Shown here: one piece after another, positions 17,071 to 55,274 of the stretch
Layout: the number at the start of each line of letters is the position of its first letter
Numbering within the stretch: the first letter of the stretch is position 1
Assembly: GCA_046727415.1 (NCBI GenBank)
Contig: JBKPCO010000035.1
Span: forward strand, 1,554 to 65,553
DNA from: Candidatus Methylomirabilota bacterium
GTDB lineage: Bacteria; Methylomirabilota; Methylomirabilia; Rokubacteriales; CSP1-6
DNA length: 64,000 nucleotides
Direction of reading: 5' to 3'
Notes under the pieces: model-generated
The model's input: the letters and a program-made list of their open reading frames with translations, nothing else
What the model was told of the DNA's origin: nothing
The model's database searches: none
Made by a program: the position numbers and the translations under genes

Positions 17071-19026
<1,956 letters not shown>

Positions 19027-42994: not shown

Positions 42995-44007
42995 GCGTTG
43001 AATTCCTTGATGAGGCGCGGGAGCCGGGGATCATCGAGCCCCTGCTGGTAGGGTTGATAGAGTGCCGTGCTGTCGAGGAGCCCGGCGTAGCGCTCCTTGA
43101 GCCGGCGGCCGATCGTCTCGTACGTTCCGGTGACGGCAAAGGTATCGAGCATCTCATCGGTGATGAGGTCGGCCATGCCCTGCCAGTCACCCTCCACGGA
43201 TTTCCGGTGGAGCGCCGGCGTGAGATCCTGCCAGCCGTGGGCGGCGAGCACGGGCTCGTAGGTGCGCGTCGAGGCGTAGAAGGCGATCTGCTGCTTGACC
43301 GAGCGCCGGTTCTTCGCCAGCTCCTCCTCGGTGTCGCCGACCACCACGAAGCTCGCGGTGGTGTAGGTAAAGTCCGCGCGCTTGCGGCCGGAGGCCTCGA
43401 GCCCTTCTTCCACGGCGGGATTGACGTACTCGCGCAGGTACTTCGGGCTGTTGAAGGGGTGCACGTGCAGGCCGTCGCACACCTCGCCGGCGATGCGGCA
43501 CATGTACTGGTTGACGCCGGCGATGTAGATCGGCACCTTCGGGTGCGCGATCGGCCCGGGGTTGAAGAACGGCGTCATCAGGTCGAACCGGTAGAACTGC
43601 CCCTTGAAGTTGAGCTTCGTCCCGTTCTGCCAGCAATCCCAGATGTGGCGGAGGGCGAGGACGATCTCGCGCATCTTCGGCCCGGGCGACTCGAACTTCA
43701 CCGAGAATCGCCGCTCGTTGTGACCCTTCACCTGAGTACCGAGGCCGAGGACGAAGCGCCCGTCGGAGGCCTTTTGCAGGTCCCACGCGATGTGCGCCAG
43801 AATCATCGGGCTGCGCGGGAACGCCACGGCGATGGCAGTCCCGAGGCGGATCGTGGAGGTGACGCCGGCGGCGACGGCGAGGGGCAGGAAAGGATCGTGC
43901 TGGGTCTCGGAGGACCAGAGGCAATCGTAGCCGAGCGCCTCGACCTTGCGCGCGTACGCGGGGATCGACTTCAAGTCGTGGGTCAGCATGCCGACATCGA
44001 GCTTCAC
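42991..44007 (-). CDS. LLM-class F420-dependent oxidoreductase (TIGR03617-like)
   Basis: Luciferase-like barrel. The GTG 44007 start is preceded by AAGGAGAGG. The ORF-track extension to 44157 has only ~63% GC3 by hand count. Confidence 0.85.
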   Translation of the reverse strand: MKLDVGMLTHDLKSIPAYARKVEALGYDCLWSSETQHDPFLPLAVAAGVTSTIRLGTAIAVAFPRSPMILAHIAWDLQKASDGRFVLGLGTQVKGHNERRFSVKFESPGPKMREIVLALRHIWDCWQNGTKLNFKGQFYRFDLMTPFFNPGPIAHPKVPIYIAGVNQYMCRIAGEVCDGLHVHPFNSPKYLREYVNPAVEEGLEASGRKRADFTYTTASFVVVGDTEEELAKNRRSVKQQIAFYASTRTYEPVLAAHGWQDLTPALHRKSVEGDWQGMADLITDEMLDTFAVTGTYETIGRRLKERYAGLLDSTALYQPYQQGLDDPRLPRLIKEFNA

Positions 44008-44243
44008 TGGCCTCTCCTTGGAGCGGGATAGGCCATTGTAGCGGAGTCGCGGGCCTAGCGGCCCCTGGCGTCGGCTCCCCGGAGCGTCATGCAGGTCGAG
44101 GTCGCGTGCGCCACGAGCCGCTGCTGATCGTCGACGATGTCGCAGCGAGGCGAGCAAGTCGCCTTAGACCGCGGCCGTCGCGAACTCCGATGGGAGCGGC
44201 CCGCCCGTCACGGATGGGACGAGGAATACCATCTGTTGCGCAT

Positions 44244-45596
44244 TCATGATTCTCTTTGCAGGCGCCAGGCGCCCTGATACATGGCGACCGAGACGACCGT
44301 GCCGAACAGGCCGAGCGCCAGCGCCATCACGACGAAGACCGAGGCGAGGCTTGGGCCCGCGAGTCTCAGCACGATCCATCCGCCGCCGGCCGCGAAAACG
44401 AGCCGGCTCAGCCCGGCCAGGAGCGGCCACAGCAAGCGTCCGGCGCCCTGGGAGGCGAAGTAGAGCGCCAGGCCCAGGCCGAAGAAGCCATAGGCCGGCC
44501 CGACGATGCGCAGGTACGTCGCGCCAATTTCCAGGACCTCGGGGTCGGCGGTGAAGAGACCGAGCCATCGTGACGGGAAGAGCGCGGCGGCCAGCCCGAT
44601 CGTCTCCGTGACACCCGCCGCCAGCGCCGCGCCGGTCCAGGCCACCCGCCGCGCGCGTGCGCCTTGGCCCGCGCCGATGTTCGTGCCCACCATCGTGACG
44701 AGCGCCGAGCCGAAGCCGAAGACGAGCGGAATCTGGAGGTATTCGAGCCGCACGCCCACGCCGTATCCGGCCAGCGCGAAGGTTCCGAACGACCCGACCA
44801 GTGCCGTGAGCAGGACGACGGTCAGGTTCGTCTGGATGTTGTTGACGAGGCTCGGCGCGCCGACGCGCAGGATTTCCCGGAAGAGGCGACGTTCGAAGCC
44901 GACCGTCGGCAGTGAAAGCCGGACGAGGCTTCGGCCGGACACGAGGAAGCCCAGGAAGACGAGCGTGCCGACCGTGTAATAGGCGATGACAGCAAGCGCG
45001 GCGCCAGTGACGCCAAGCGCGGGAAACGGCCCCCAGCCGAAGATCAGCGCGGGCGAGGTCAGTAAGATCGGGCTGGCGCCGAGCACCACGCCGGCCGGCA
45101 GCACCATGTTGCTGCTCCCCCGGACCACGCTGGCGAGCGTGTTGAACAGCCAGACCGCGAGAGCGCCCGCGAAGATGACATTCGAGTACGCGAGGGCGGC
45201 CTCGAGCGCGTCGCCGCGCGCCCCCATGGCCGCGTAGATCGCCCGCCCGCCGGTCAGCACCACGAGCGTGAACGCGGCCGCCATGGCGACGGCGATGACG
45301 ATCGCGTGGGCCACCAGACGGCTCGCCTCCGCGGCCCGTCCCGCACCGAGCGCCCGCGCGATCGCCGAGGCGACGCCGCCGCCCATGCCGCCGGCCGACA
45401 TCGTCTGCATGAGCATGACCAGCGGGAAGGTGACCGAGACGCCGGCGAGAGCGTCGGCGCCGAGCCAGCCGACGAAGTACGCCTCCAGCACGCTGATGGC
45501 GACCTGGGCCACCAGCATGACGACGTTGGGCGCGGCCAGCGCCAGGAGGGTCGGCGCGATCGGGCCCTCGAGCAGCCGGCGGGTCCGCGCGTCCAT
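44244..45596 (-). CDS. MATE-family efflux transporter
   Basis: 450 aa, 12 TM, N-terminal 'LLEGPIAPTLLALAAPNVVMLVAQ' typical of NorM/DinF-type MATE. Confidence 0.9.
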   Translation of the reverse strand: MDARTRRLLEGPIAPTLLALAAPNVVMLVAQVAISVLEAYFVGWLGADALAGVSVTFPLVMLMQTMSAGGMGGGVASAIARALGAGRAAEASRLVAHAIVIAVAMAAAFTLVVLTGGRAIYAAMGARGDALEAALAYSNVIFAGALAVWLFNTLASVVRGSSNMVLPAGVVLGASPILLTSPALIFGWGPFPALGVTGAALAVIAYYTVGTLVFLGFLVSGRSLVRLSLPTVGFERRLFREILRVGAPSLVNNIQTNLTVVLLTALVGSFGTFALAGYGVGVRLEYLQIPLVFGFGSALVTMVGTNIGAGQGARARRVAWTGAALAAGVTETIGLAAALFPSRWLGLFTADPEVLEIGATYLRIVGPAYGFFGLGLALYFASQGAGRLLWPLLAGLSRLVFAAGGGWIVLRLAGPSLASVFVVMALALGLFGTVVSVAMYQGAWRLQRES

Positions 45597-45666
45597 GCCC
45601 TTAGAGAGTCATGCTCATCGACTATCGATTCAGATCTGACTACGAATTGTATAGTGACTAGCTTTC

Positions 45667-46149
45667 GTGTCAAGCCTCGGTTACACTGAGGCCGTGCCCA
45701 AGCGTTACGGTCAGGCGTGCCCGGTCGCGAAGTCGCTCGAGGTGGTGGGCGATCGCTGGACTCTCCTCTTGATCCGTGACCTCCTCCGCGGCCCGCGGCG
45801 GTTCCAGGATTTCCTGGAGAGCCTGGCCGGAATCCCGCCCAACATCCTCTCCGACCGCCTGAAGCGCATGGAGGCGCACGCGCTGGTGGCGCGGCGCTTT
45901 TACTCCGAGCATCCACCGCGGGCCGAGTATGTCCTGACCGACAAGGGGCGCGAGCTGAGGATGGTGGTGGGCGCGCTCGCCGCGTGGGGCTCGCGCCACG
46001 TCCACCGGCAGACGGCCCTCGTGCACGCCGAGTGCGGGCATCCGGTGGAAGTCGAGTACGTCTGCCGCCGCTGCGCCGGGCGCGTGGGGGGCACCACGGT
46101 CGAGCTCCGGCGAATGTCGAAGTCCGGCCGCGCCGCGAAGCGCCGCTAG
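45667..46149 (+). CDS. HxlR-family transcriptional regulator
   Basis: 'CPVAKSLEVVGDRWTLLLIRDL...RFQDF...I..NILSDRLKRME'. Start is GTG 45667 or GTG 45694. Confidence 0.85.
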   Translation: MSSLGYTEAVPKRYGQACPVAKSLEVVGDRWTLLLIRDLLRGPRRFQDFLESLAGIPPNILSDRLKRMEAHALVARRFYSEHPPRAEYVLTDKGRELRMVVGALAAWGSRHVHRQTALVHAECGHPVEVEYVCRRCAGRVGGTTVELRRMSKSGRAAKRR

Positions 46150-47264
46150 CTCTGGCGAACTCGCTCGGGCAGCGCTTGCAGCACGGCGCGCGCCTCGCGG
46201 ACGATGGCCTGTACCACCTCGGCGGCGCCGGGCAGGTCGCGGATCAGGCCGACGCTCTGGCCGCACATCATCGGGTAATGCTCGGCGTCGCCCTGCTTGA
46301 GGGCCGCGATGTAGATGTCGTTGGCAGCGGTCCGCTGGACGAGCGGCGGGAGCACGGGCGCGCCGGCCTCGGTGTACTCGCGGGTGAAGCGATTCGCGAG
46401 CGCCCGGGCCCAGAGGCCGCTCAGCACGTCGGTGACGGTCGTCGCGTCGCTCTCGCTCTCCAGCACGCGCTTCTTGTAGAGCTCGGGCGCCAGCGATTCG
46501 CGGGTGGCCACGAAGCGGGTCCCCAGCAATATCCCGCTCGCCCCGAGGGCCAGCGCGGCCACGAGCCCGCGCCCGTCGGCGATGCCGCCCGCGGCCACGA
46601 CCGGAGCCCGCACCGCGTCCACGACCTGCGGCAGCAAGGCGATGGTCCCCACCGTGGTCGACTCCGCGGTCGCCGGCTTGCCGTCGATCGAGCGATGCCC
46701 CCCAGCCTCTCCTCCCTGCGCGACGATTACGTCGGCCCCCTCGGCCACGGCCACGCGCGCGTCGGCCACGGTCGAAACCATGGCCACGAGCTTGATGCCC
46801 CGTCGGTGACAGCTCTCGCTGATCCGGTGGTCGAGCCAGCCGAGCGCGGCCGAGAACACCGCGGGCCGCTCCTCGAGCACGACCTGGATCGTCGCGTCGA
46901 CAAGATCGGGCGCCCGGGGCGGCCGGCTCGTCGTCGTCGGAATCCCAAGGCGCTGGCGGAAGCGGTTCAGCATCTCCTGGGCTCCCCGCAGCGTCGCCTC
47001 TGGTATCCCAGCGGGATCGATCGGGGGCCGGAGATCGCGGTGCAGCCAGAGATTCACGCCGAACGGACGATCGGTCAGATCGCGGACGCGGCGGATCATC
47101 CTTCTTAGATCGTCTGGAGGCACGTTAAGCCCCGCCAGGATGCCGAGGCCGCCGGCGCGGCACACCTCGGCGACCAGCTCCGGTCCCGCGATGGCGCCCA
47201 TACCCGACTGAACGATCGGATACTCGATCCCCAGAAAATCACAGAGCGCTGTGCGAAAGCTCAT
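46146..47264 (-). CDS. Nitronate monooxygenase / FMN-dependent NMO (FabK-like) family
   Basis: 'LGIEYPIVQSGMG' and 'VAQGGEAGGH' motifs. Confidence 0.85.
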   Translation of the reverse strand: MSFRTALCDFLGIEYPIVQSGMGAIAGPELVAEVCRAGGLGILAGLNVPPDDLRRMIRRVRDLTDRPFGVNLWLHRDLRPPIDPAGIPEATLRGAQEMLNRFRQRLGIPTTTSRPPRAPDLVDATIQVVLEERPAVFSAALGWLDHRISESCHRRGIKLVAMVSTVADARVAVAEGADVIVAQGGEAGGHRSIDGKPATAESTTVGTIALLPQVVDAVRAPVVAAGGIADGRGLVAALALGASGILLGTRFVATRESLAPELYKKRVLESESDATTVTDVLSGLWARALANRFTREYTEAGAPVLPPLVQRTAANDIYIAALKQGDAEHYPMMCGQSVGLIRDLPGAAEVVQAIVREARAVLQALPERVRQS

Positions 47265-47268
47265 GGCC

Positions 47269-48141
47269 CTACTCCAGGCGATAGAGCGCGTGCGCGTTCT
47301 GGTAGGCGACGCGCTCGGCCACGTCCGGTCTCAGCTCGCCGAGAATTCGCCGGGTCCAGACGAAGAGGCGATCCAGCATCGCCGGCTCGAAGAGCCGCGC
47401 CGCCCAGACGTCGACGCCGATCAAGAAGCGATCGGGCATCTTTTCGACGAGCGCCCTCCAGCCGGGATCGAGCGGACCGGTCTCCGTCGCAAGCGCGGGC
47501 GTCCGCTGGAAGTGCATGCCGGACAGATCCACACGGAGATTGGGATTCCGCATCAGGAGCCGGTCGAGACGGCCGGGCGGCCCCTCACCACCGTGGGCGA
47601 GCACGATCGTCGCCTTGCGGTGGGCGGCCAGGGCGCGATCGAGCGCGGTCTCGGCTGCGTCGGTCAGCTCGTAGTGAATGACGATCGGGACGCCGAACTT
47701 TCCGACGACGTCGAGGATCCGACCGAATGCCGCGTTGTTGGGATCGCGATCGATCAGCTGGCGTCCGACCTGACGCATGTGAACCTCGCCGATCACCCGT
47801 GGTCGTCCGCGCTCGAGCTGGACCTCGAGCTGGCTCGCCGCGGCGTCCGTGGTTGGGTCGGGCAGGGGCAGGCCGGCCACCACGCGATCGGGATACTTCT
47901 TGCTTGCCGCCGTCAACCAGATCGCGTCCTCCTTCTGGCGGCCTCCGACGCCCAGGAGCACGACCTTGGCGACGTTGTGTCGCTTCATCGCGGCGACGTA
48001 CGCATCGATCGCGGTGCCATTCGGCAGGTGCGAGTGGGCGTCGATGAGCGGCCCGCCATAGTCGGCGGCGCGGGCCGTCGGGGCGAGGCCGATCAGCACG
48101 GCGATCAAAGCGCCCGCGACGACGCCGAACGCGTTGGTCAT
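47269..48141 (-). CDS. Amidohydrolase-2 (TIM-barrel metal hydrolase) with N-terminal signal/anchor
   Basis: 'LIDAHSHLP' HxH motif. The N-terminus 'MTNAFGVVAGALIAVLIGLAPTARA' is signal-like. Confidence 0.75.
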   Translation of the reverse strand: MTNAFGVVAGALIAVLIGLAPTARAADYGGPLIDAHSHLPNGTAIDAYVAAMKRHNVAKVVLLGVGGRQKEDAIWLTAASKKYPDRVVAGLPLPDPTTDAAASQLEVQLERGRPRVIGEVHMRQVGRQLIDRDPNNAAFGRILDVVGKFGVPIVIHYELTDAAETALDRALAAHRKATIVLAHGGEGPPGRLDRLLMRNPNLRVDLSGMHFQRTPALATETGPLDPGWRALVEKMPDRFLIGVDVWAARLFEPAMLDRLFVWTRRILGELRPDVAERVAYQNAHALYRLE

Positions 48142-49322
48142 ACGATGCCCTCGCGGCTCAGGTTCTCCAGCTCGATGTCGTCGATGCCGATCTCGCCGTA
48201 CACCTCACGGTTGTGGGCGCCGAGGGCCGGTCCCGACGAACGGATCGTCGCGGGAGTCTCGGCCAGGCGCGGCGTCGGTGCCGTCATCCGGACGGAGCCC
48301 AAGTCGGCGTCCGGGACGTCGACGAGGATGCCGCGGCCGGCGACGTGCGGGTCCTTGGCGATGTCGGCGCTGTCGTAGACGGGACACGCGGTGAGGTTCG
48401 CGGTCTCGAAGAGCCGCATCATCTCGTCGAGGGTCCGGGAGCCGATGGCCCGCGTGAGCGCCGCGTCGACCAGGTCGTTGTGGGCGACTCGCGCATCGTT
48501 GGTGGCGAACCGGCGGTCCGCCAGGAGGTCGCGCAGGCCCAGGCCTTCGAAGAGCGCGGCGGCCGAGGCGGGTGTCGAGGCCGACAGCGCCACCCACTTG
48601 CCCTCGCGCGTCCGGTAAGTCCCGCGAGGGCTCGCGTTGTCCGAGCTGTTACCGCGGCGCACGGCCACGGTCCCGTCGAGCGCGTACTCGGCGGCCGCCG
48701 GGCCCAGCACCGACAGGAGCGGCTCGTAGAGCGAGACGTCGATCACCTGGCCGCGTCCGGAGACATGGTCGCGATGACGCAGAGCCGCCAAAACCGCGGT
48801 CGTCGCCGACAGGGCCGCGATCATGTCGGCCATCGGGAACGAGGGGAGCGTCGGCGGGCCGTCGGCCTCGCCCGTCGCCGCGGCGAATCCGCTCATCGCT
48901 TCGACCATCGTGCCGAAGCCCGGCCGATCCCGATAGGGCCCGTCCTGACCCCAGCCGGAAACTCGGGCGAAGACCAGGCGCGGGTTGTCGGCGGACAGGA
49001 CATCCCAGCCGAGCCCCCACTTCTCGAAGGTACCCGGCAAGAAGTTCTCGACGAGGACGTCGGCGCCGCGACACAGCCGGCGCAGGAGCGCCTGGCCCCT
49101 CGGATGGGCGAGGTTCAGGGTGACCGAGCGCTTGCCGCGCGCGTACACCTTCCACCAGAGCTCGCCCCGATCGCGAAGCCATGTGCGCAGGGGATCGCCG
49201 CCGCGCGGGTTTTCGACCTTGATGACGTCGGCGCCGTGGTCGGCGAGGATCGTCGCGAGCACGCCGCCGGCGATCAGCCGAGAGCAGTCGACGACCCGGA
49301 GCCCGGCGAGCGCTCCGCTCAC
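48138..49322 (-). CDS. Family III CoA-transferase (CaiB/BaiF)
   Basis: 'LAGLRVVDCSRLIAGGVLATILADHGADVIKVE'. GTG 49322 overlaps the TGA of the small upstream ORF. The ORF-track extension to 49436 has ~46% GC3 by hand count. Confidence 0.85.
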   Translation of the reverse strand: MSGALAGLRVVDCSRLIAGGVLATILADHGADVIKVENPRGGDPLRTWLRDRGELWWKVYARGKRSVTLNLAHPRGQALLRRLCRGADVLVENFLPGTFEKWGLGWDVLSADNPRLVFARVSGWGQDGPYRDRPGFGTMVEAMSGFAAATGEADGPPTLPSFPMADMIAALSATTAVLAALRHRDHVSGRGQVIDVSLYEPLLSVLGPAAAEYALDGTVAVRRGNSSDNASPRGTYRTREGKWVALSASTPASAAALFEGLGLRDLLADRRFATNDARVAHNDLVDAALTRAIGSRTLDEMMRLFETANLTACPVYDSADIAKDPHVAGRGILVDVPDADLGSVRMTAPTPRLAETPATIRSSGPALGAHNREVYGEIGIDDIELENLSREGIV

Positions 49323-49477
49323 TGGCCCGGGGTTTTCTTGAAGTGCTGCGCCAGCGCGTCCATCATGCGGGCCAGAGCCTCGTTCTCGGTGCGCCCGGTC
49401 GTCTCGACGCCCCAATTCACGGCAACCGCGATCCACTCGCCCAGCTCGTTACGATGGACTTCGACCTCGAATTGCAT
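49319..49477 (-). CDS. HicB/DUF1902-like small protein (52 aa), absent from ORF track
   Basis: Hand translation: MQFEVEVHRNELGEWIAVAVNWGVETTGRTENEALARMMDALAQHFKKTPGQ. High GC3, GTGA coupling to the CoA-transferase start. The beta-beta-beta-alpha pattern resembles UPF0150/HicB-like antitoxin N-domains. Confidence 0.5.
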   Translation of the reverse strand: MQFEVEVHRNELGEWIAVAVNWGVETTGRTENEALARMMDALAQHFKKTPGQ

Positions 49478-49505
49478 GCCCGACACTTTACCTCAGAGCG
49501 GGATC

Positions 49506-49928
49506 CTAGTGGGCGCGAGGCAGGACGGGATGGCCCGCGGCGGCGTCGGCGATCGTGTGGTCGTTGTCGGCGGGCACCGCGCCGCTGACCCCGACGGCGC
49601 CCACGATGCGCCCGTCCTCTACCAACGGCACCGCGCCCCGGCCGAAGACGAATTGGTAGTCGCCGAGGGTCGCGACGTTGTCGGCGAAGAGCTGGCGCTT
49701 GCCGAATCGATCCTCGAGATCGAGGGTGGTGGAGTGGAAAGCCGCCGCGGCGTTGGCCTTGGCGCGGGCGATCTCTGGCGTGACCCAGAGCGCGCCGTCC
49801 ATCCGGTCGCAGACGATCAGATGTCCGGCGTCGTCGACGACCGCGATCGCGACCTTGAAGCCGAGCGCCTGCGCCTGGGCGACGCCGCGCTCGACACAGG
49901 CGCGAGCCCGATCGCGGGTGAGCGCCAC
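49506..49928 (-). CDS. GlcG/HbpS-like (DUF336) heme-binding protein
   Basis: 'AIAVVDDAGHLI' and 'GAVGVSG'. GTG 49928 lies 1 nt after the Rieske gene stop. Confidence 0.8.
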   Translation of the reverse strand: MALTRDRARACVERGVAQAQALGFKVAIAVVDDAGHLIVCDRMDGALWVTPEIARAKANAAAAFHSTTLDLEDRFGKRQLFADNVATLGDYQFVFGRGAVPLVEDGRIVGAVGVSGAVPADNDHTIADAAAGHPVLPRAH

Positions 49929-49929
49929 C

Positions 49930-50238
49930 TCAGGCGATCTCCACCCAGATGTCGCCGCCTTCGATCGTGACGGGATACGTGTCGACACGGCCGCCGCGCG
50001 AAGGCATCACGCACTCGCCGGAGCGCAGGTCGAACATCCAGCCGTGCCAGGGACACGCGAGCCGCGTGCCGGTCAACCGCCCCTCGCTGAGGGGCCCGCC
50101 CTGATGCGTGCACTCGTCGCTGCACGCGAACACCTCGTCACGGACCCTCACCAGTACGACGCGGGCGCCGTTGGTCTCGACCAGCTTGAGCTGGCCCGCC
50201 GTCAGGTCGTCGAGCCGGCCGACGTGTTGGCGGCTCAC
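49930..50238 (-). CDS. Rieske [2Fe-2S] ferredoxin-type protein
   Basis: 102 aa with 'CTHQGGPL' (CxH) and 'CPWHGWMF' (CxxH). Confidence 0.85.
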   Translation of the reverse strand: MSRQHVGRLDDLTAGQLKLVETNGARVVLVRVRDEVFACSDECTHQGGPLSEGRLTGTRLACPWHGWMFDLRSGECVMPSRGGRVDTYPVTIEGGDIWVEIA

Positions 50239-50915
50239 ACCTCGTCCTTCACGACGAAGGCGCGGTAGAGGCCGGTCATGTACTGCCAGCGCATCTCGGT
50301 GGCCTGCCGAACCGCGTCGACCGCCTCCGCCTGCCGCGCCGGACTCGTGCAGTGACGCTCGACGATCTGGTAGCCGCGCTCGCCGTGGACCTCGTCGGCC
50401 TCAATGTGGATCGCGAAGAACTCCACTTCGTGGTCGGTGAAGCCGTAGTGCGTCTTGAGCGGGGGCAGGTTGCGCTGGTAGATGCCCGGCACCTGGGACT
50501 CGAGCCCGACCAGGAGCCCGGCCGCCGCGACGTGGAAGGGCTGGTGTGACATCTCGAAGCACCACGCGGTGAGGCCGCGAGTGGTCGGGAGCTGCTGCTT
50601 GGACTCCACCTCGGCCCGCGACACGCCGCACGCCTCGGCGAAGCGGATCAGCAGATCGACGTGCTTGGTGCCGGACTCTTCCTCGATGATGTTCTCGAGC
50701 AGGAAATCGCGCGCGTCGGGGTCGGGACACTCGCCGTACACCGTGGCGCACCAGCGCGGGAACTGCGAGACGTACTGATGGTGCTGGGCCGCCCAGGCGC
50801 CGAGCTGAGCGCGCGTCAGCTCGCCCTTCACCCACTTCTCGGTGAACGGATTCAGGCGGCTGTGGCGGGCGCTGACAGCGGCTTCGAGCTGGGCACGGAA
50901 CGGGCTCTTGCTCAT
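50235..50915 (-). CDS. CADD/PqqC-like heme-oxygenase-fold protein (possible diiron oxidase)
   Basis: Collinear with PqqC/CADD (TENA_THI-4/PQQC family). It contains 'EEESGTKH' (E-x6-H), 'GLES' and 'HIEADEVH' (H-x3-D-x2-H). ATG 50915 has a GGAGGA RBS (ATG 50927 is an alternative). ATGA overlap with the Rieske gene. Confidence 0.75.
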   Translation of the reverse strand: MSKSPFRAQLEAAVSARHSRLNPFTEKWVKGELTRAQLGAWAAQHHQYVSQFPRWCATVYGECPDPDARDFLLENIIEEESGTKHVDLLIRFAEACGVSRAEVESKQQLPTTRGLTAWCFEMSHQPFHVAAAGLLVGLESQVPGIYQRNLPPLKTHYGFTDHEVEFFAIHIEADEVHGERGYQIVERHCTSPARQAEAVDAVRQATEMRWQYMTGLYRAFVVKDEV

Positions 50916-51031
50916 CGGCTCCTCCATCGGTGCGTCGAACAGCGATGTCGCTCGGGCGCGATCGAGGAACCTAATGACACATGAGCGGGAGACAAGTCAA
51001 GCACGGGAGGGAGAACGGAGCGACGAACGAC

Positions 51032-52090
51032 CTAGAGCGCGGAGACGCGGTTGCGACCCTGGTCCTTGGCGTCGCGCAGGGCGCGCTGCGCCGCCGCCAG
51101 CAGGTCGTCGGCCGACACGGCGTCGGCGGGCAGCCCGGCCACGCCGAAGCTCGCAGTGACCGTGCCGTACGCGAAGGGATGACTCTCGATGACGGACCGG
51201 ATCCGCTGGGCGTAGGTGGCGGCGCCGGCCTTGGGGGTGTTGGCGAGCAGGGCGGCGAACTCGTCGCCGTCCAGGCGGGCGATGATCGTGAAGCTCCGAG
51301 AGTGCCGGAGGAGGAGGCGCGATACCTCCCGGAGCACCTCGTCGCCGGCCGCCTGACCGTGCTCGGCGGTGATCGGCTTGAAGCAATCCACGTTCACGAC
51401 CACGAGCGAGAGCGGATGCCCGAACCGGGTATGGCGCTTGACCTCCTCGTCGATCCGCAGGCCGAAGTACCGGCGGTTGTAGAGCTCGGTCAGGCTGTCC
51501 TTGAACGAGATGTTCTCGAGCCGGGCGTTGCGGATGGCGACCGCCGCGTGGGCGGCGAGGGCCCGGATGAGCTTCTCGTGATCCCGGTGGAAGGCGACGG
51601 TGGCACCCGAGTCGTCGACCGCATTCAGGAGCTCGAGCACCCCGATGATGCTACCGGTCAGATCTTGCAGGGGGACGGCGAGCACCGAGCGCGTGGCGTA
51701 GTCGCTGGCGACGTCGAACCGCTCGTTGAAGGCGCGGGTCTGATGCACGCCGATTGCGTGCGCGTCGGCGACGTTGACCACCTCGCCGGTCTTCGCCACG
51801 TGGCCGGCGAGACTTGGCTCGCTGAGCCGCAGGGGCTCGGCCTCGAATCGCTGCTGCAGCCCGGGCCGGGCCAGCTTCCGCTCGATGAGGTCGTTCTGCA
51901 CCACCGCGAACCGGAGCCGGTCGCCATCGCGGAGAAAGAGCGTCCCGGCCTCGGCGCGCGTGAATCGCCGCGCCGCCTCGAGGATGCGGTCGAGCAGGGC
52001 GTAGAGATCGCGCTCGCTGGCGACGGCGAGCCCGATCTCGAGGAGCTCGTCGAGCACTTGCTCGCGGTCGGCGGCGGTGTGGGAGCTCAC
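51032..52090 (-). CDS. GAF-domain protein with degenerate GGDEF domain (DGDEF)
   Basis: GAF N-terminus. The GGDEF-fold C-terminus reads 'RLDGDEF' (nt 51257-51271), and 'FKPITAEHG' replaces the usual 'FKxxND..G'. Confidence 0.85.
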   Translation of the reverse strand: MSSHTAADREQVLDELLEIGLAVASERDLYALLDRILEAARRFTRAEAGTLFLRDGDRLRFAVVQNDLIERKLARPGLQQRFEAEPLRLSEPSLAGHVAKTGEVVNVADAHAIGVHQTRAFNERFDVASDYATRSVLAVPLQDLTGSIIGVLELLNAVDDSGATVAFHRDHEKLIRALAAHAAVAIRNARLENISFKDSLTELYNRRYFGLRIDEEVKRHTRFGHPLSLVVVNVDCFKPITAEHGQAAGDEVLREVSRLLLRHSRSFTIIARLDGDEFAALLANTPKAGAATYAQRIRSVIESHPFAYGTVTASFGVAGLPADAVSADDLLAAAQRALRDAKDQGRNRVSAL

Positions 52091-53121
52091 GGCGCGGCCG
52101 CCCGGTTCGGGCCCAGACGCTTGGCTTCGTAGAGGGCCCGATCGGCGGCGACGATGAGGTCATCGACGGTTGTCGCGTCTTCCGGCAGGCTCGCGATCCC
52201 CAGAGTGGCGGTGACCGGGTGTGCGGACCGGTTTTGCTCGATGACGCCCCGGATGCGCTCCGCGTACGTGAGGCCGCCGGCCTTGGTCGTGTTTACCAGG
52301 ATGATCGCGAACTCGTCGCCGCCGTACCGGGTCACAATGCTGAAGCTCCGCGAATGCTTGACCAGGAGCTGGGCCACCTCGCGCAGCACTTCGTCCCCGG
52401 CACGGTGGCCGAACCGGTCGTTCACCTCCTTGAAGTGATCCAGGTCCATCAGCGCCAGCGAGAGCGGCTCGCCGAAGCGGCAGTGGCGCTTGAACTCCTC
52501 CTCCATGCGGATCGTGAAGTAGCGACGGTTGTAGACGTCGGTCAACGCGTCCTTGAAGGAGAGGTCCTCGAGCCGGGCGTTGCGGAGTGCGACGGCAGCC
52601 TGGGAGGCGAGCGACCGCACCAGCGATTCGTATTGCGAGTCGAACGGCACGACGCGGCCGCGGTCGAGCGCGTTGATCAGTTCGAGCACGCCGAGGATAT
52701 TGTGCGAGGGATCCTGGAGCGGGACCACCAGGATCGACTGCGTGCGATAGCTGAGGCGCGCGTCGATACGCTGATCGAAGGCATACGGCCGGTCCGGCGG
52801 GATCATGTACGTATCGTGCAGGTTGAGGATATCGCCGGTGAGCGCGACGTGGCCGGCGAGGCTCAGCTCACGCAGATGCAGGGGCTCGGCCTTGAGACGG
52901 CGACGCATCTCCTCCTCGCCCAGCTCCTTGGCGAGCCGGTCGTTCTGCACGACGGAGAAGCGCAGCAGGTCACCCTCGCGGAGGAACAGCGTGCCGGCCT
53001 CGGCCCGTGTGAAGCGGCGCGCTTCGGTCAGGATGCGCTCGAGCAACGTGCCCAGGTCCTGCTCGCTGGTCAACGTGATCCCGATCTGTACCAGCTCCCG
53101 GAACGCCTGGGTCAGGTTCAA
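52087..53121 (-). CDS. GAF-domain diguanylate cyclase (canonical GGDEF)
   Basis: GAF N-terminus, 'DLDHFKEVNDRFGH' and 'RYGGDEF' (nt 52309-52323). TTG 53121 lies 10 nt after AGGAGG. 4-nt overlap with the downstream paralogue. Confidence 0.9.
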   Translation of the reverse strand: MNLTQAFRELVQIGITLTSEQDLGTLLERILTEARRFTRAEAGTLFLREGDLLRFSVVQNDRLAKELGEEEMRRRLKAEPLHLRELSLAGHVALTGDILNLHDTYMIPPDRPYAFDQRIDARLSYRTQSILVVPLQDPSHNILGVLELINALDRGRVVPFDSQYESLVRSLASQAAVALRNARLEDLSFKDALTDVYNRRYFTIRMEEEFKRHCRFGEPLSLALMDLDHFKEVNDRFGHRAGDEVLREVAQLLVKHSRSFSIVTRYGGDEFAIILVNTTKAGGLTYAERIRGVIEQNRSAHPVTATLGIASLPEDATTVDDLIVAADRALYEAKRLGPNRAAAP

Positions 53122-53172
53122 CTGCGTGATACCTCCTGGCTAGTGAGGTCAGACTAGCACGCCGCCCAACTC

Positions 53173-53188
53173 AGCAATCCCAGTGCCA
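53173..53188 (-). promoter_or_regulatory. Consensus sigma-54 -24/-12 promoter (minus strand) for the GAF-GGDEF operon
   Basis: The minus strand reads TGGCACtgggaTTGCT, a full match to TGGCAC-N5-TTGCW. It lies ~50 nt upstream of TTG 53121. Confidence 0.7.
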
Positions 53189-53217
53189 CAAACCACAAAG
53201 GGGAAATCAACCTGCAG

Positions 53218-53229
53218 TTTGTCGACAAA
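53218..53229. promoter_or_regulatory. Perfect 12-bp palindrome TTTGTCGACAAA
   Basis: Read directly from the sequence, 30 bp upstream of the minus-strand -24 element. Candidate protein-binding site. Confidence 0.3.
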
Positions 53230-53460
53230 TTAGCCAGATAGGCTCATTCCTAACACACGAAAGCGGCCTTCCGGTCACTCTCTGAGCATGGAAATTCTTA
53301 CCAATGGCCAATCGTTTGCCGGTCTGACAGCTGGGTCCGGTGACCGCATGGCCAGCGGTAGGTTCCTGGCGTGTCAGAGTGCGCATCAGCGGGTCGAGAG
53401 GCTCGGCGCACTTTCCCGCAACACTCCGGATTCGTTACTGGAAGGCGATCTCCGCGCCGC

Positions 53461-53476
53461 TGGCACATCAGTTGCA
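53461..53476 (+). promoter_or_regulatory. Consensus sigma-54 -24/-12 promoter (plus strand) for the 590-aa protein gene
   Basis: TGGCACatcagTTGCA, a full match with exact spacing. It ends 26 nt upstream of ATG 53502. Confidence 0.7.
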
Positions 53477-53501
53477 TAAGGCCGCGTCGGGACAGGCTTG
53501 C

Positions 53502-55274
53502 ATGAAACTGACTTTCAAGCGGCGCGACGTCAAGGATCTTCAGCAGCTCGCCACGCTGGTCGCGGAGAACGTCGACGCGATCGAAACCGGGCTCAAGATC
53601 ATTGGGTCGAATCTGAATCTCGGTCGGGCCAGCATCGAGCTCGTCGCGCTCGACGCCGCGGACACGCCGGTGCTGGTCACGCTGGGCCTCACCGCCGACG
53701 ACACGATGCTCCTGAGGGCGCTCGAGGCCTATGCCTGGTGCCTCGACTATCCAGAGTCGCTGCAGAAGCTCGTCCCCGCCTCGAGACGGCCGGAGTGGCC
53801 ACCGCGAGTCGTCTTCGTCGCCGAGCGGCTCCTCGAGTCGTTCCTGAGGAAGATGCGGTTGCTCAAGTTCTCCACGGTCGACTTCTTCGAGTTCCGCTAC
53901 GTCGAGGCCAACGGCACCACGGGTTTCTACCTCGACCGGGCCGACTGGGATCCAAACAGCGCCGGCTCACTGGACGACGAGCGAGCGGACGAGCGACCGG
54001 AACGCCCTGAGCGCGTCGAGCGCCCGGCTCCTCGGCTTGGCCCGCCCACCCGTCATGTCGAGCCGGTCCATGTCGAGCCGGTCGCCGAGCAGGAGCCGGA
54101 GGAACTGGAAGCACAGGAGGAACCCGAAGAGGAGCGCGAGGTCGTCGTGCACGAAGAGCCAGTGGCTGTCGAGGAGCCGACGATCGTCATGCTCCACGAG
54201 CCCAAGCCTGCGCCCCGAGTGGCACCGCCGCCTCGACTGGAAACCGCACCGCGACCGGCACCCCGTGTGGAACCTGCGCCCAGGGTGGAGCCTCCGCGCA
54301 CAGTGCAGCCGCCGCCTCCGCCGCCCCGAGTGGATCCCAGCAAGGTCGCCGCGCCGGCGCCCAGGGTTGTCTCACCGGTAGCGTCCAACACCGGCCGCGA
54401 ACCAGCGGACGGCCACGTGGTCCTCAAGGGTTTGCGCGTGCCGACCGAGACGCCGCGAGGCCAGCACCCGCGCGACCTTCCGAACGTTCCGGTGAAGGAA
54501 GCGCCGCCAAAGCCCCAGCGCGAGAGCGTCGCACCGGCGGCCTCTACCAGGTCCGCACGCGTCGGGACGAGCACTCCGAGCACGATCGATCCACGTATTC
54601 CGCGTATTCCGGCGAAGGGCGCTCCAGTCGGGAACGGATCGAGGAACGACACCCCAAAGATCGACACCCCGAGGATCGACACGCCGAAGATCGACGTGCC
54701 GAAGCCTGAAGCTCCCAAGAGCGACCTCGCTCCGACCTGGAGAAAGTTCCTCGACAGGCTGACCGGCACGTTCGACGCGCGGCCGGCGACGCCGGCTCCG
54801 GAGCCGTTCGCCACCGATCTCCACCTCCAGCCCGACGAGGTGGCTCCCGACGAGGTCATCGACGAATCCCAGGATTCGATGACCGAGCTGTCGGAGCAGC
54901 AGCAGAGCGCCCTGAAGGGTCTCACACTCCCGGACAACGGCGAGCTCGCGCCCCAGTGGCGCCAGTTCCTCGACCATCCGACGCTCGACGAGGCGAAGAT
55001 CGCGGTCGTCCGGGGATACCTGCAGCGCGAGTTCCCGCTGTGCACCGTCTACGACTTCCACGATTTCCAGCGCAACGCGCAGGTGTTCCAGCTCCAGGAC
55101 AACCACGGCAAGGTCACGCAGCTCATCACGATGACCGCGGAGTTCTTCGACTCGCATCGCGACCTGGAGATCCGCGCGTGGATCGAGAAGCACAAGGTCG
55201 CGCATGCGGCGCGGCAGGCAGGTCAGGCCGGCGTGCTCGTCTCGCAGGCCGGTCTCCAGATCGAAAAGAGCTAG
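53502..55274 (+). CDS. Hypothetical 590-aa protein: NucS/DUF91-like N-domain (degenerate), long Pro-rich repeat region, unknown C-domain
   Basis: ATG 53502 chosen because the sigma-54 element lies inside the ORF-track extension (53340..). The N-terminal ~150 aa follow the NucS C-domain pattern ('VAENVDAIETGLKIIGSNL..IELVALDAADTPVLVTLG'). The middle ~330 aa are P/E/R/V-rich. Confidence 0.75.
   Translation: MKLTFKRRDVKDLQQLATLVAENVDAIETGLKIIGSNLNLGRASIELVALDAADTPVLVTLGLTADDTMLLRALEAYAWCLDYPESLQKLVPASRRPEWPPRVVFVAERLLESFLRKMRLLKFSTVDFFEFRYVEANGTTGFYLDRADWDPNSAGSLDDERADERPERPERVERPAPRLGPPTRHVEPVHVEPVAEQEPEELEAQEEPEEEREVVVHEEPVAVEEPTIVMLHEPKPAPRVAPPPRLETAPRPAPRVEPAPRVEPPRTVQPPPPPPRVDPSKVAAPAPRVVSPVASNTGREPADGHVVLKGLRVPTETPRGQHPRDLPNVPVKEAPPKPQRESVAPAASTRSARVGTSTPSTIDPRIPRIPAKGAPVGNGSRNDTPKIDTPRIDTPKIDVPKPEAPKSDLAPTWRKFLDRLTGTFDARPATPAPEPFATDLHLQPDEVAPDEVIDESQDSMTELSEQQQSALKGLTLPDNGELAPQWRQFLDHPTLDEAKIAVVRGYLQREFPLCTVYDFHDFQRNAQVFQLQDNHGKVTQLITMTAEFFDSHRDLEIRAWIEKHKVAHAARQAGQAGVLVSQAGLQIEKS
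54054..54083 (+). repeat. Exact in-frame tandem 15-mer (CATGTCGAGCCGGTC x2)
   Basis: Read directly from the sequence. Encodes HVEPV-HVEPV. Confidence 0.9.
54648..54707 (+). repeat. In-frame tandem 15-nt repeats (3 good units plus 1 degenerate)
   Basis: GACACCCCAAAGATC / GACACCCCGAGGATC / GACACGCCGAAGATC / GACGTGCCGAAGCCT, encoding DTPKI-DTPRI-DTPKI-DVPKP. Confidence 0.85.

Follow-up and report, generated by a model that had tools for sequence, protein, structure and literature searches.

To our knowledge, about a dozen heme-oxygenase-like dimetal oxidases (HDOs) have been characterised, nearly all of them from natural-product clusters. PqqC is the cofactor-less synthase of pyrroloquinoline quinone (PQQ) and does not require metal ligands, and toluene-4-monooxygenase (T4MO) is composed of a reductase, the Rieske ferredoxin T4moC, the effector T4moD and a diiron hydroxylase. 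In CADD (CT610) of Chlamydia, Tyr27 serves as the sacrificial carbon skeleton of p-aminobenzoate (pABA) (PMC9522330) and Lys152 as the amine donor (PMC13108848). The only characterised dedicated redox partner of an HDO, and possibly the first, is MboB, which acts with MboA in mangotoxin biosynthesis (2026; PMC13185094), and the characterised HDOs need no protein effector (PMC13108848, a 2026 review). Genes of the DUF336 family are linked to aldehyde-producing pathways, and the DUF336 proteins EfgA (formaldehyde) and HbpS are sensors (PMC8153426). The stretch of DNA analysed here, referred to as the window, spans 64,000 nucleotides (64 kb; contig JBKPCO010000035.1, positions 1,554 to 65,553) of a Rokubacteria/Methylomirabilota-type genome of approximately 69% GC, and contains an operon of seven genes that begins with an HDO gene followed by genes for a Rieske ferredoxin and a GlcG/DUF336 protein. 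With moderate confidence, these first three genes are taken to encode a multicomponent oxygenase that is built on the HDO, is fed by the Rieske protein and includes GlcG as a linked third component.

The original prediction described seven tightly packed genes on the minus strand, and an open reading frame (ORF) check of the window sequence confirms all seven at the coordinates given then; the family assignments hold too, except for the HicB label of the 52-residue protein. The features are as follows, in the 5' to 3' direction of the minus strand and with positions numbered within the window.

50971 to 51000, minus strand: promoter-like footprint 5' of the HDO gene, a block conserved in the closest relatives
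50235 to 50915, minus strand: HDO gene, 226 residues; Haem_oxygenas_2 PF14518 (1.3e-31), within the TENA/THI-4/PQQC Pfam family
49930 to 50238, minus strand: Rieske-type [2Fe-2S] ferredoxin gene, 102 residues; PF00355 (4.8e-19)
49506 to 49928, minus strand: GlcG/DUF336 (HbpS-like) gene, 140 residues; PF03928 (4e-31)
49319 to 49477, minus strand: gene for a 52-residue protein; sub-threshold DUF7387 match only
48138 to 49322, minus strand: family III coenzyme A (CoA) transferase gene, 394 residues; CoA_transf_3 PF02515 (5.8e-117)
47269 to 48141, minus strand: Amidohydrolase-2/TatD-like gene, 290 residues; PF04909 (1.6e-14) and PF01026 (1.5e-06)
46146 to 47264, minus strand: gene for a flavin mononucleotide (FMN) enzyme of the nitronate monooxygenase (NMO) family, 372 residues; PF03060 (6.9e-78)

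The first gene encodes a protein that, judged by its sequence and predicted fold, is a heme-oxygenase-like dimetal oxidase related to CADD. The Haem_oxygenas_2 model matches with 110 bits against a cutoff of 28.9. Six metal ligands (E79, H85, E139, H170, D174 and H177) do not vary among 26 aligned sequences, CADD and NePabS included, and correspond to E81, H88, E142, H174, D178 and H181 of CADD. The full diiron ligand pattern that had been claimed for this protein is thereby confirmed as a set of three histidines and three carboxylates identical to that of CADD and NePabS. The motifs from which it was originally read (E-x6-H, a mid-protein Glu and H-x3-D-x2-H) are real and invariant, with the correction that the alignment gives the first spacing as E-x5-H, one residue shorter than in CADD. 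In the all-helical AlphaFold model (pLDDT 95.6, pTM 0.91), E79 and H85 are located on successive helices separated by a 4-residue loop. The best Foldseek match of the model is CADD (TM-score 0.88/0.93, root-mean-square deviation 1.6 A), which like NePabS has a seven-helix heme-oxygenase-like bundle; PqqC is the second-best match, and UndA, HrmI, BesC and FlcD are also identified. By sequence, the nearest PDB entries are NePabS (9pj4) and CADD (1rcw/8va9), all at approximately 1e-26 and 29–31% identity, followed by weaker matches to PqqC (1e-12) and marginal ones to UndA and BesC, and the PDB sequence search did not recover MboA up to E = 1. The protein is predicted to bind two metal ions and to activate O2. 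At the two positions that donate atoms to pABA, the alignment shows Thr25 in place of CADD Tyr27 and Asn in place of Lys152. Both residues are absent from the whole clade of the window protein (38–47% relatives), whereas more distant matches of approximately 30% identity retain both and appear, on their sequences, to be true CADD-type proteins.

The next gene encodes a single-domain Rieske protein of approximately 100 residues with a CxH...CxxH motif, and its cluster ligands (C43-x-H45, C62-x-x-H65) show a conservation of 95% or more among 39 orthologues. Its nearest PDB relatives are soluble oxygenase ferredoxins only (the naphthalene dioxygenase ferredoxin, BphF, TodB, CarAc and T4moC). They include the ferredoxins of naphthalene, biphenyl and toluene dioxygenases and of T4MO, and T4moC feeds a diiron hydroxylase. 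All specific equivalog models for the protein score under their cutoffs. The gene adjoins the HDO gene with overlapping codons, and in Actinomadura a reductase gene follows the Rieske gene. The original proposal that the Rieske protein supplies electrons to the HDO is considered very probable in view of the oxygenase-ferredoxin relatives, the contiguity of the HDO and Rieske genes and the order of Rieske and reductase genes in Actinomadura.

Conservation of the gene set was examined by scanning one genome per GTDB species with a five-sequence HDO alignment as the query, which gave 80 loci; 83 loci were compared in all (denoted by L and a number), 34 of them Rokubacteria-type. Neighbours were compared by tblastn with the window proteins and by separate gene calling (with a GC3-based filter) and clustering, and the counts are taken from tblastn because some Rieske genes were mis-called by the gene caller. 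Using a neighbour radius of 7 kb, the 61 loci in which the HDO gene has 3 kb or more of flank on either side contain GlcG in 59 cases and a [2Fe-2S] protein in 57, with both present in 57. Across all 83 loci GlcG is the commonest neighbour (71 loci), and an aldehyde dehydrogenase lies within the same distance in 20. The HDO, Rieske and GlcG genes are contiguous in every Rokubacteria-type locus of sufficient length (HDO identity 74–96%), and HDOs of 45–53% identity are found beyond the Rokubacteria in Bacillales, Alpha- and Betaproteobacteria, Actinomycetota and Chloroflexota. The core module is composed of an HDO, a [2Fe-2S] protein and a GlcG/DUF336 protein, which occur as a group in five or more bacterial phyla. 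GlcG, which had been listed as one more gene of the operon, is actually the partner that this HDO family keeps most consistently.

The type of iron-sulfur partner differs between lineages, in which non-orthologous proteins replace one another. It is a small Rieske ferredoxin in Rokubacteria and actinomycetes, and the Actinomadura locus (L090) encodes, in order, gamma-glutamyltranspeptidase, RidA, aldehyde dehydrogenase, HDO, Rieske protein, ferredoxin reductase, a second Rieske protein, an MFS transporter, PucR and GlcG. The reductase of this locus contains Pyr_redox_2 and Reductase_C domains, so that HDO, Rieske protein and reductase form a canonical three-component chain. Loci of the Reyranella type encode a divergent Rieske-domain protein of 280–330 residues. 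In Bacillales the partner is a plant-type Fer2 ferredoxin, and the neighbours are a creatininase-family hydrolase, a transporter, an aldehyde dehydrogenase, GlcG and GntR. Bordetella, Azospirillum and a Caballeronia plasmid combine Fer2 with a BenC/MmoC-like flavin/[2Fe-2S] reductase, beside an aldehyde dehydrogenase, GlcG, an OCD-family imine reductase and a transporter. GntR and PucR regulators and transporters thus occur in the HDO neighbourhoods of the relatives. The donor function is kept while the type of protein is swapped, which is the strongest argument that the HDO needs a dedicated [2Fe-2S] donor.

The distant HDO cassettes also encode a conserved protein of approximately 100 residues (c17) without a Pfam or NCBIfam family, usually between or beside the genes for plant-type ferredoxins (L086, 4988–5287; L079, 6455–6790; L071, 11126–11440; L091, 8066–8416; L010, 1245–1544), and from its position c17 may be a further component of these systems. 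Locus L091 is part of plasmid pSBC2-4 of Caballeronia sp. SBC2 (NZ_CP049320.1, 279169–297855), where genes for Fer2, c17, a second Fer2 and an alpha/beta hydrolase are divergent from those for HDO, aldehyde dehydrogenase, GlcG, reductase, OCD and MFS. This cassette adjoins ISNCY transposases, which suggests mobility, and the same HDO is found on the megaplasmid of Cupriavidus metallidurans CH34 (NC_007974.2, approximately 169.3–169.9 kb).

The third gene encodes the GlcG/DUF336 protein, which is matched by PF03928 over residues 3–131 of 140 (108 bits, cutoff 25). Its PDB relatives are EfgA (6bws, 2.9e-10), NahX (9jth), PduO-C and HbpS. As with GlcG, PduO-C and NahX, the DUF336 gene is embedded in an operon of aldehyde-generating oxidative metabolism (PMC8153426), but no conserved pairing of DUF336 with both an HDO and a [2Fe-2S] protein turned up in the literature searched. 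Nor was a paper found there that connects an HDO to a Rieske ferredoxin or to a DUF336 protein, and nothing relevant emerged on ferredoxin-partnered HDOs in catabolism or on the function of NahX. The names given to the orthologues in public annotations either say little or are wrong: the GlcG proteins are named 'heme-binding protein', and the HDOs are named 'pyrroloquinoline-quinone synthase' (JGI), 'TenA family transcriptional regulator', 'aldehyde dehydrogenase' or 'iron-containing redox enzyme family protein'.

The observed gene content, metal ligands, fold, loss of the pABA residues and conservation of the trio can be combined with knowledge of the families into a proposed mechanism, in which the electron flow, the type of reaction, what GlcG does and how the CoA genes are connected are inferred. 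Electrons from NAD(P)H would pass through a reductase encoded outside the window to the 102-residue Rieske [2Fe-2S] ferredoxin, which would re-reduce the diiron (or Fe/Mn) site of the HDO after every turnover. The reduced site would then activate O2 and oxidise a free small molecule by hydroxylation or by oxidative C-C or C-N cleavage, and in the relatives the product would probably be an aldehyde. GlcG could serve the labile dimetal site, either as an effector or by maintaining the cofactor, or it could bind the aldehyde or another reactive product as EfgA does with formaldehyde. The four downstream genes stand outside the conserved machine, and through them an acid product may be processed as its CoA thioester. 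Circumstantial hints to the substrate come from the enzymes encoded by the relatives, which include OCD-family imine reductases, creatininase, gamma-glutamyltranspeptidase, RidA, hydantoinase and an aldehyde dehydrogenase similar to 2-oxoglutarate semialdehyde dehydrogenase. A broader proposal, possible though doubtful, is that HDO, [2Fe-2S] protein and DUF336 protein constitute an unrecognised class of multicomponent oxygenases in which DUF336 is obligatory in catalysis as an effector, cofactor keeper or aldehyde handler; such a class would span Methylomirabilota, Bacillota, Actinomycetota, Chloroflexota and Alpha- and Betaproteobacteria.

The described systems resemble this module in part. 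Unlike CADD and NePabS, the window HDO lacks the sacrificial Tyr27 and Lys152 and is encoded with a Rieske protein and GlcG rather than with folate genes, and it is expected to turn over repeatedly on a free substrate. As in MboA/MboB, the operon encodes its own iron-sulfur electron-transfer partner, and the BenC-like flavin/[2Fe-2S] reductases of the Bordetella, Azospirillum and Caballeronia relatives belong to the class of MboB; the window differs in having a stand-alone Rieske protein that needs a separate reductase, in the accompanying GlcG and in lying outside a natural-product cluster. The four-component toluene and alkene monooxygenases, which the module most resembles in its proposed working, follow the same logic, in which an NAD(P)H reductase and a Rieske protein serve a carboxylate/histidine diiron site with a small non-redox partner. 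However, the T4MO-type hydroxylase is a ferritin-like four-helix bundle and the window HDO has the heme-oxygenase-like fold, and GlcG/DUF336 is unrelated to the MmoB/T4moD effectors, with no MmoB-type family match among the operon proteins in family profile scans. Because the hydroxylase fold differs, the window system is not a member of the ferritin-like bacterial multicomponent diiron monooxygenases and the analogy is one of mechanism only.

The junctions of the operon are tight. The start codon of the Rieske gene overlaps the HDO stop codon (GTGA), a gap of 1 nucleotide separates the Rieske and GlcG genes, and 28 nucleotides separate GlcG from the gene for the 52-residue protein. The junctions of this gene with the CoA-transferase gene and of the latter with the amidohydrolase gene are 4-nucleotide overlaps, and 4 nucleotides separate the amidohydrolase and NMO genes. 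By inspection, a Shine-Dalgarno sequence (GGAGGA) is located in front of the HDO ATG at 50915 and supports the start that was originally chosen for the 226-residue protein. A spacer of 105 nucleotides between the operon and the upstream GAF-GGDEF gene contains the footprint, composed of TTGACT (51000–50995), a 17-nucleotide spacer and TCATTA/CATTAG (50977–50971). The block GCTTGACTTG...TGTGTCATTAGGTTCC is kept in the five closest genomes (the window, L011, L012, L013 and L015), with an internal spacer that varies. A promoter consensus scan gave no call at 50971 to 51000, and the block is therefore described as a phylogenetic footprint that is promoter-like only. Terminator and promoter scans gave nothing convincing inside the cluster, and an Rfam scan of 44000–54000 gave nothing at E <= 0.1. 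The tight or overlapping junctions and the conserved upstream footprint support a transcription start at the HDO gene.

The original prediction had listed a pABA-synthase-like role, as for CADD, as an alternative. The HDO would then be a self-sacrificing pABA synthase for folate synthesis, like CADD of Chlamydia and NePabS of Nitrosomonas, which are the nearest solved relatives of the first protein by sequence and by fold and have an identical ligand set. The loss of Tyr27 and Lys152 throughout the clade rules out such a role, and the CADD model TIGR04305 scores 141.1 bits against a cutoff of 200. Folate genes were detected neither in the operon and the scanned flanks nor within approximately 10 kb on either side in syntenic relatives. 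The redox partners, regulators and transporters of the relatives point to a multi-turnover catabolic enzyme, and pABA synthesis is regarded as very improbable. PQQ synthesis by a cofactor-less PqqC, with the remaining pqq genes elsewhere in the genome, would agree with the JGI name of the orthologues, with the shared TENA/THI-4/PQQC Pfam family and with the close fold match (TM-score approximately 0.86–0.88), yet its probability is minute. The PqqC model TIGR02111 scores 71.9 bits against a cutoff of 240, and all six metal ligands, which PqqC does not need, are invariant. What is conserved beside the gene is a ferredoxin and GlcG instead of PqqA/B/D/E, and the earlier statement that no other pqq genes are present holds for the operon, the scanned flanks and approximately 10 kb on either side in syntenic relatives, where no radical-SAM, PqqD or PqqB-type gene was found.

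A different question is whether the unit of function is larger than the trio. The original prediction treated the seven genes as one set in which the HDO feeds a CoA-dependent pathway. In a single pathway of this kind, an acid product of the HDO and Rieske protein would be CoA-activated by the CoA-transferase and then pass to the amidohydrolase and the NMO-family enzyme. The overlapping or near-abutting junctions, the lack of a convincing internal promoter or terminator and the maintenance of the order in 12 relatives favour such a pathway, and the 2-oxoglutarate-semialdehyde-dehydrogenase-like enzymes of distant cassettes together with the dicarboxylate-type CoA-transferase of the window could point to a dicarboxylic acid product. 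The gene neighbourhoods do not bear out a conserved set of seven, however. In the 29 Rokubacteria-type loci for which 5 kb or more of downstream sequence is available, the block of 52-residue protein, CoA-transferase and amidohydrolase follows the trio in 12; in the other 17 the trio is followed by unrelated genes, either for a TPR protein and a hydantoinase/oxoprolinase or for a PhnD-like ABC transporter. In the HDO tree the CoA-transferase-linked loci fall, apart from the outlier L039, into what is essentially a single clade with internal losses, and no distant cassette has the CoA block beside its HDO. The tail of the cluster is fluid, since L012 and L017 have no NMO gene behind that for the amidohydrolase, and an AMP-binding acyl-CoA ligase of 547 residues is inserted between amidohydrolase and NMO in L001 (13814–15457) and L023 only, the corresponding site of the window (47264–47269) being free of it. 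By inspection, the amidohydrolase has a hydrophobic N-terminus, MTNAFGVVAGALIAVLIGLAPTARA/AD (the stretch ends ARA/AD), and an HSH motif; this possible signal peptide or anchor suggests an exported or membrane-anchored enzyme, which fits poorly with cytoplasmic CoA chemistry. The patchy distribution and the apparently exported amidohydrolase argue that the downstream genes are a lineage-specific addition, and a single seven-gene pathway is judged unlikely. A redox, iron or aldehyde stress sensor, in which GlcG would do the sensing and GAF-GGDEF proteins would be the output, draws on the sensors HbpS and EfgA (PMC8153426) and on the GAF-GGDEF genes directly upstream (two in the window, three in L001). 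The GGDEF genes accompany the trio only in the closest relatives, whereas elsewhere it occurs with aldehyde dehydrogenases, hydrolases, transporters and GntR/PucR regulators typical of catabolism, so that a sensor is quite improbable.

Several points weigh against the multicomponent-oxygenase reading. The electron chain is locally incomplete, since tblastn of the 64-kb window for a ferredoxin reductase, a BenC-like reductase, Fer2, aldehyde dehydrogenase and c17 gave a sole match, to an unrelated acyl-CoA ligase paralogue (17407–18948). None of the ten longer HDO homologues is a fusion with a Rieske or GlcG domain, their extensions being only TPR, ABM or unassigned. A catalytic role of GlcG lacks precedent because the characterised HDOs act without a protein effector. 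Many of the 83 loci are akin, as the 34 of Rokubacteria type are, so that fewer independent observations underlie the counts than the figures suggest. L039, which branches separately in the HDO tree, has the 52-residue gene and a CoA-transferase gene after the trio, so that a functional link to the CoA block may exist, and the spacing of the genes indicates that the four downstream genes of the window are probably co-transcribed with the trio. Judged by the catabolic surroundings in the relatives, the substrate may be an amino- or imino-acid or a cyclic amide.

The four downstream genes encode proteins of differing clarity. The gene for the 52-residue protein is conserved in 12 other loci (13 aligned sequences including that of the window) and occurs exactly where the CoA-transferase occurs. 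Its description as HicB-like is not upheld, as the only family signal is DUF7387 at 24.5 bits (cutoff 27.9), with no NCBIfam match and no PDB match better than E = 0.75; the protein also has no similarity to c17 of the distant cassettes. The CoA-transferase is matched over its full length by PF02515 (391 bits), and its PDB relatives are CaiB/BaiF, formyl-CoA transferase and succinate-hydroxymethylglutarate CoA-transferase (approximately 1e-56 to 1e-50). The best equivalog, succinate-glutarate CoA-transferase, scores 253 bits against a cutoff of 750, and the family is clear. The amidohydrolase has no PDB sequence relative at E <= 0.01. The final gene encodes a predicted FMN enzyme of the NMO family (nitronate monooxygenase or FabK-like enoyl reductase), with PDB relatives among FabK and the nitronate monooxygenases (approximately 1e-47) and a FabK equivalog score of 235 bits against a cutoff of 453. 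In Rokubacteria-type loci that do not have the block, the genes upstream of the trio are purE, E1 dehydrogenase genes or a GntR regulator. A hydantoinase/oxoprolinase gene is located one or two genes 3' of the trio in L025, L026, L027, L032, L038 and L040, which lack the CoA-transferase block, and amide hydrolases recur in other phyla, where creatininase, gamma-glutamyltranspeptidase or an alpha/beta hydrolase is encoded beside the HDO.

Directly upstream of the operon, two GAF-GGDEF diguanylate cyclase paralogues are encoded in tandem on the minus strand (51032–52090 and 52087–53121) with a 4-nucleotide ORF overlap, and L001, an 88%-identical relative, has three copies. Beyond these, a plus-strand ORF (53340–55274) encodes 644 residues with a long Pro/Ala/Glu-rich low-complexity middle; its L001 counterpart has 580 residues and no Pfam match on record. 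At the other end, an HxlR-family regulator gene (45667–46149, plus strand) converges on the NMO gene and shares 4 nucleotides with it. The best sigma-70-like match of the region (TTGACA, 16 nucleotides, TACAAT; 11/12) is found at 45646–45673 on the minus strand, before a MATE transporter gene (45596–44244). In L011, in which the HDO is 96% identical, the gene order is identical, including the flanking HxlR, MATE and luciferase-like genes.

The locus points to a large uncharacterised clade related to CADD that looks catabolic rather than biosynthetic, and whose members in well-flanked loci mostly have their own iron-sulfur donor (57/61) and a DUF336/GlcG protein (59/61). The clade offers a way to learn how electrons reach HDOs physiologically and a testable functional setting for the long-enigmatic GlcG/DUF336 family, with Cupriavidus metallidurans CH34, Bordetella bronchiseptica and Bacillales such as Gottfriedia acidiceleris as culturable carriers for genetics, in which the orthologue has 45–51% identity. 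Its recognition corrects a widespread mis-annotation as PqqC, TenA regulator or aldehyde dehydrogenase. If DUF336 does prove obligatory in catalysis, this would be the first HDO dependent on a protein effector and the first mechanistic role for a GlcG-type DUF336 protein.

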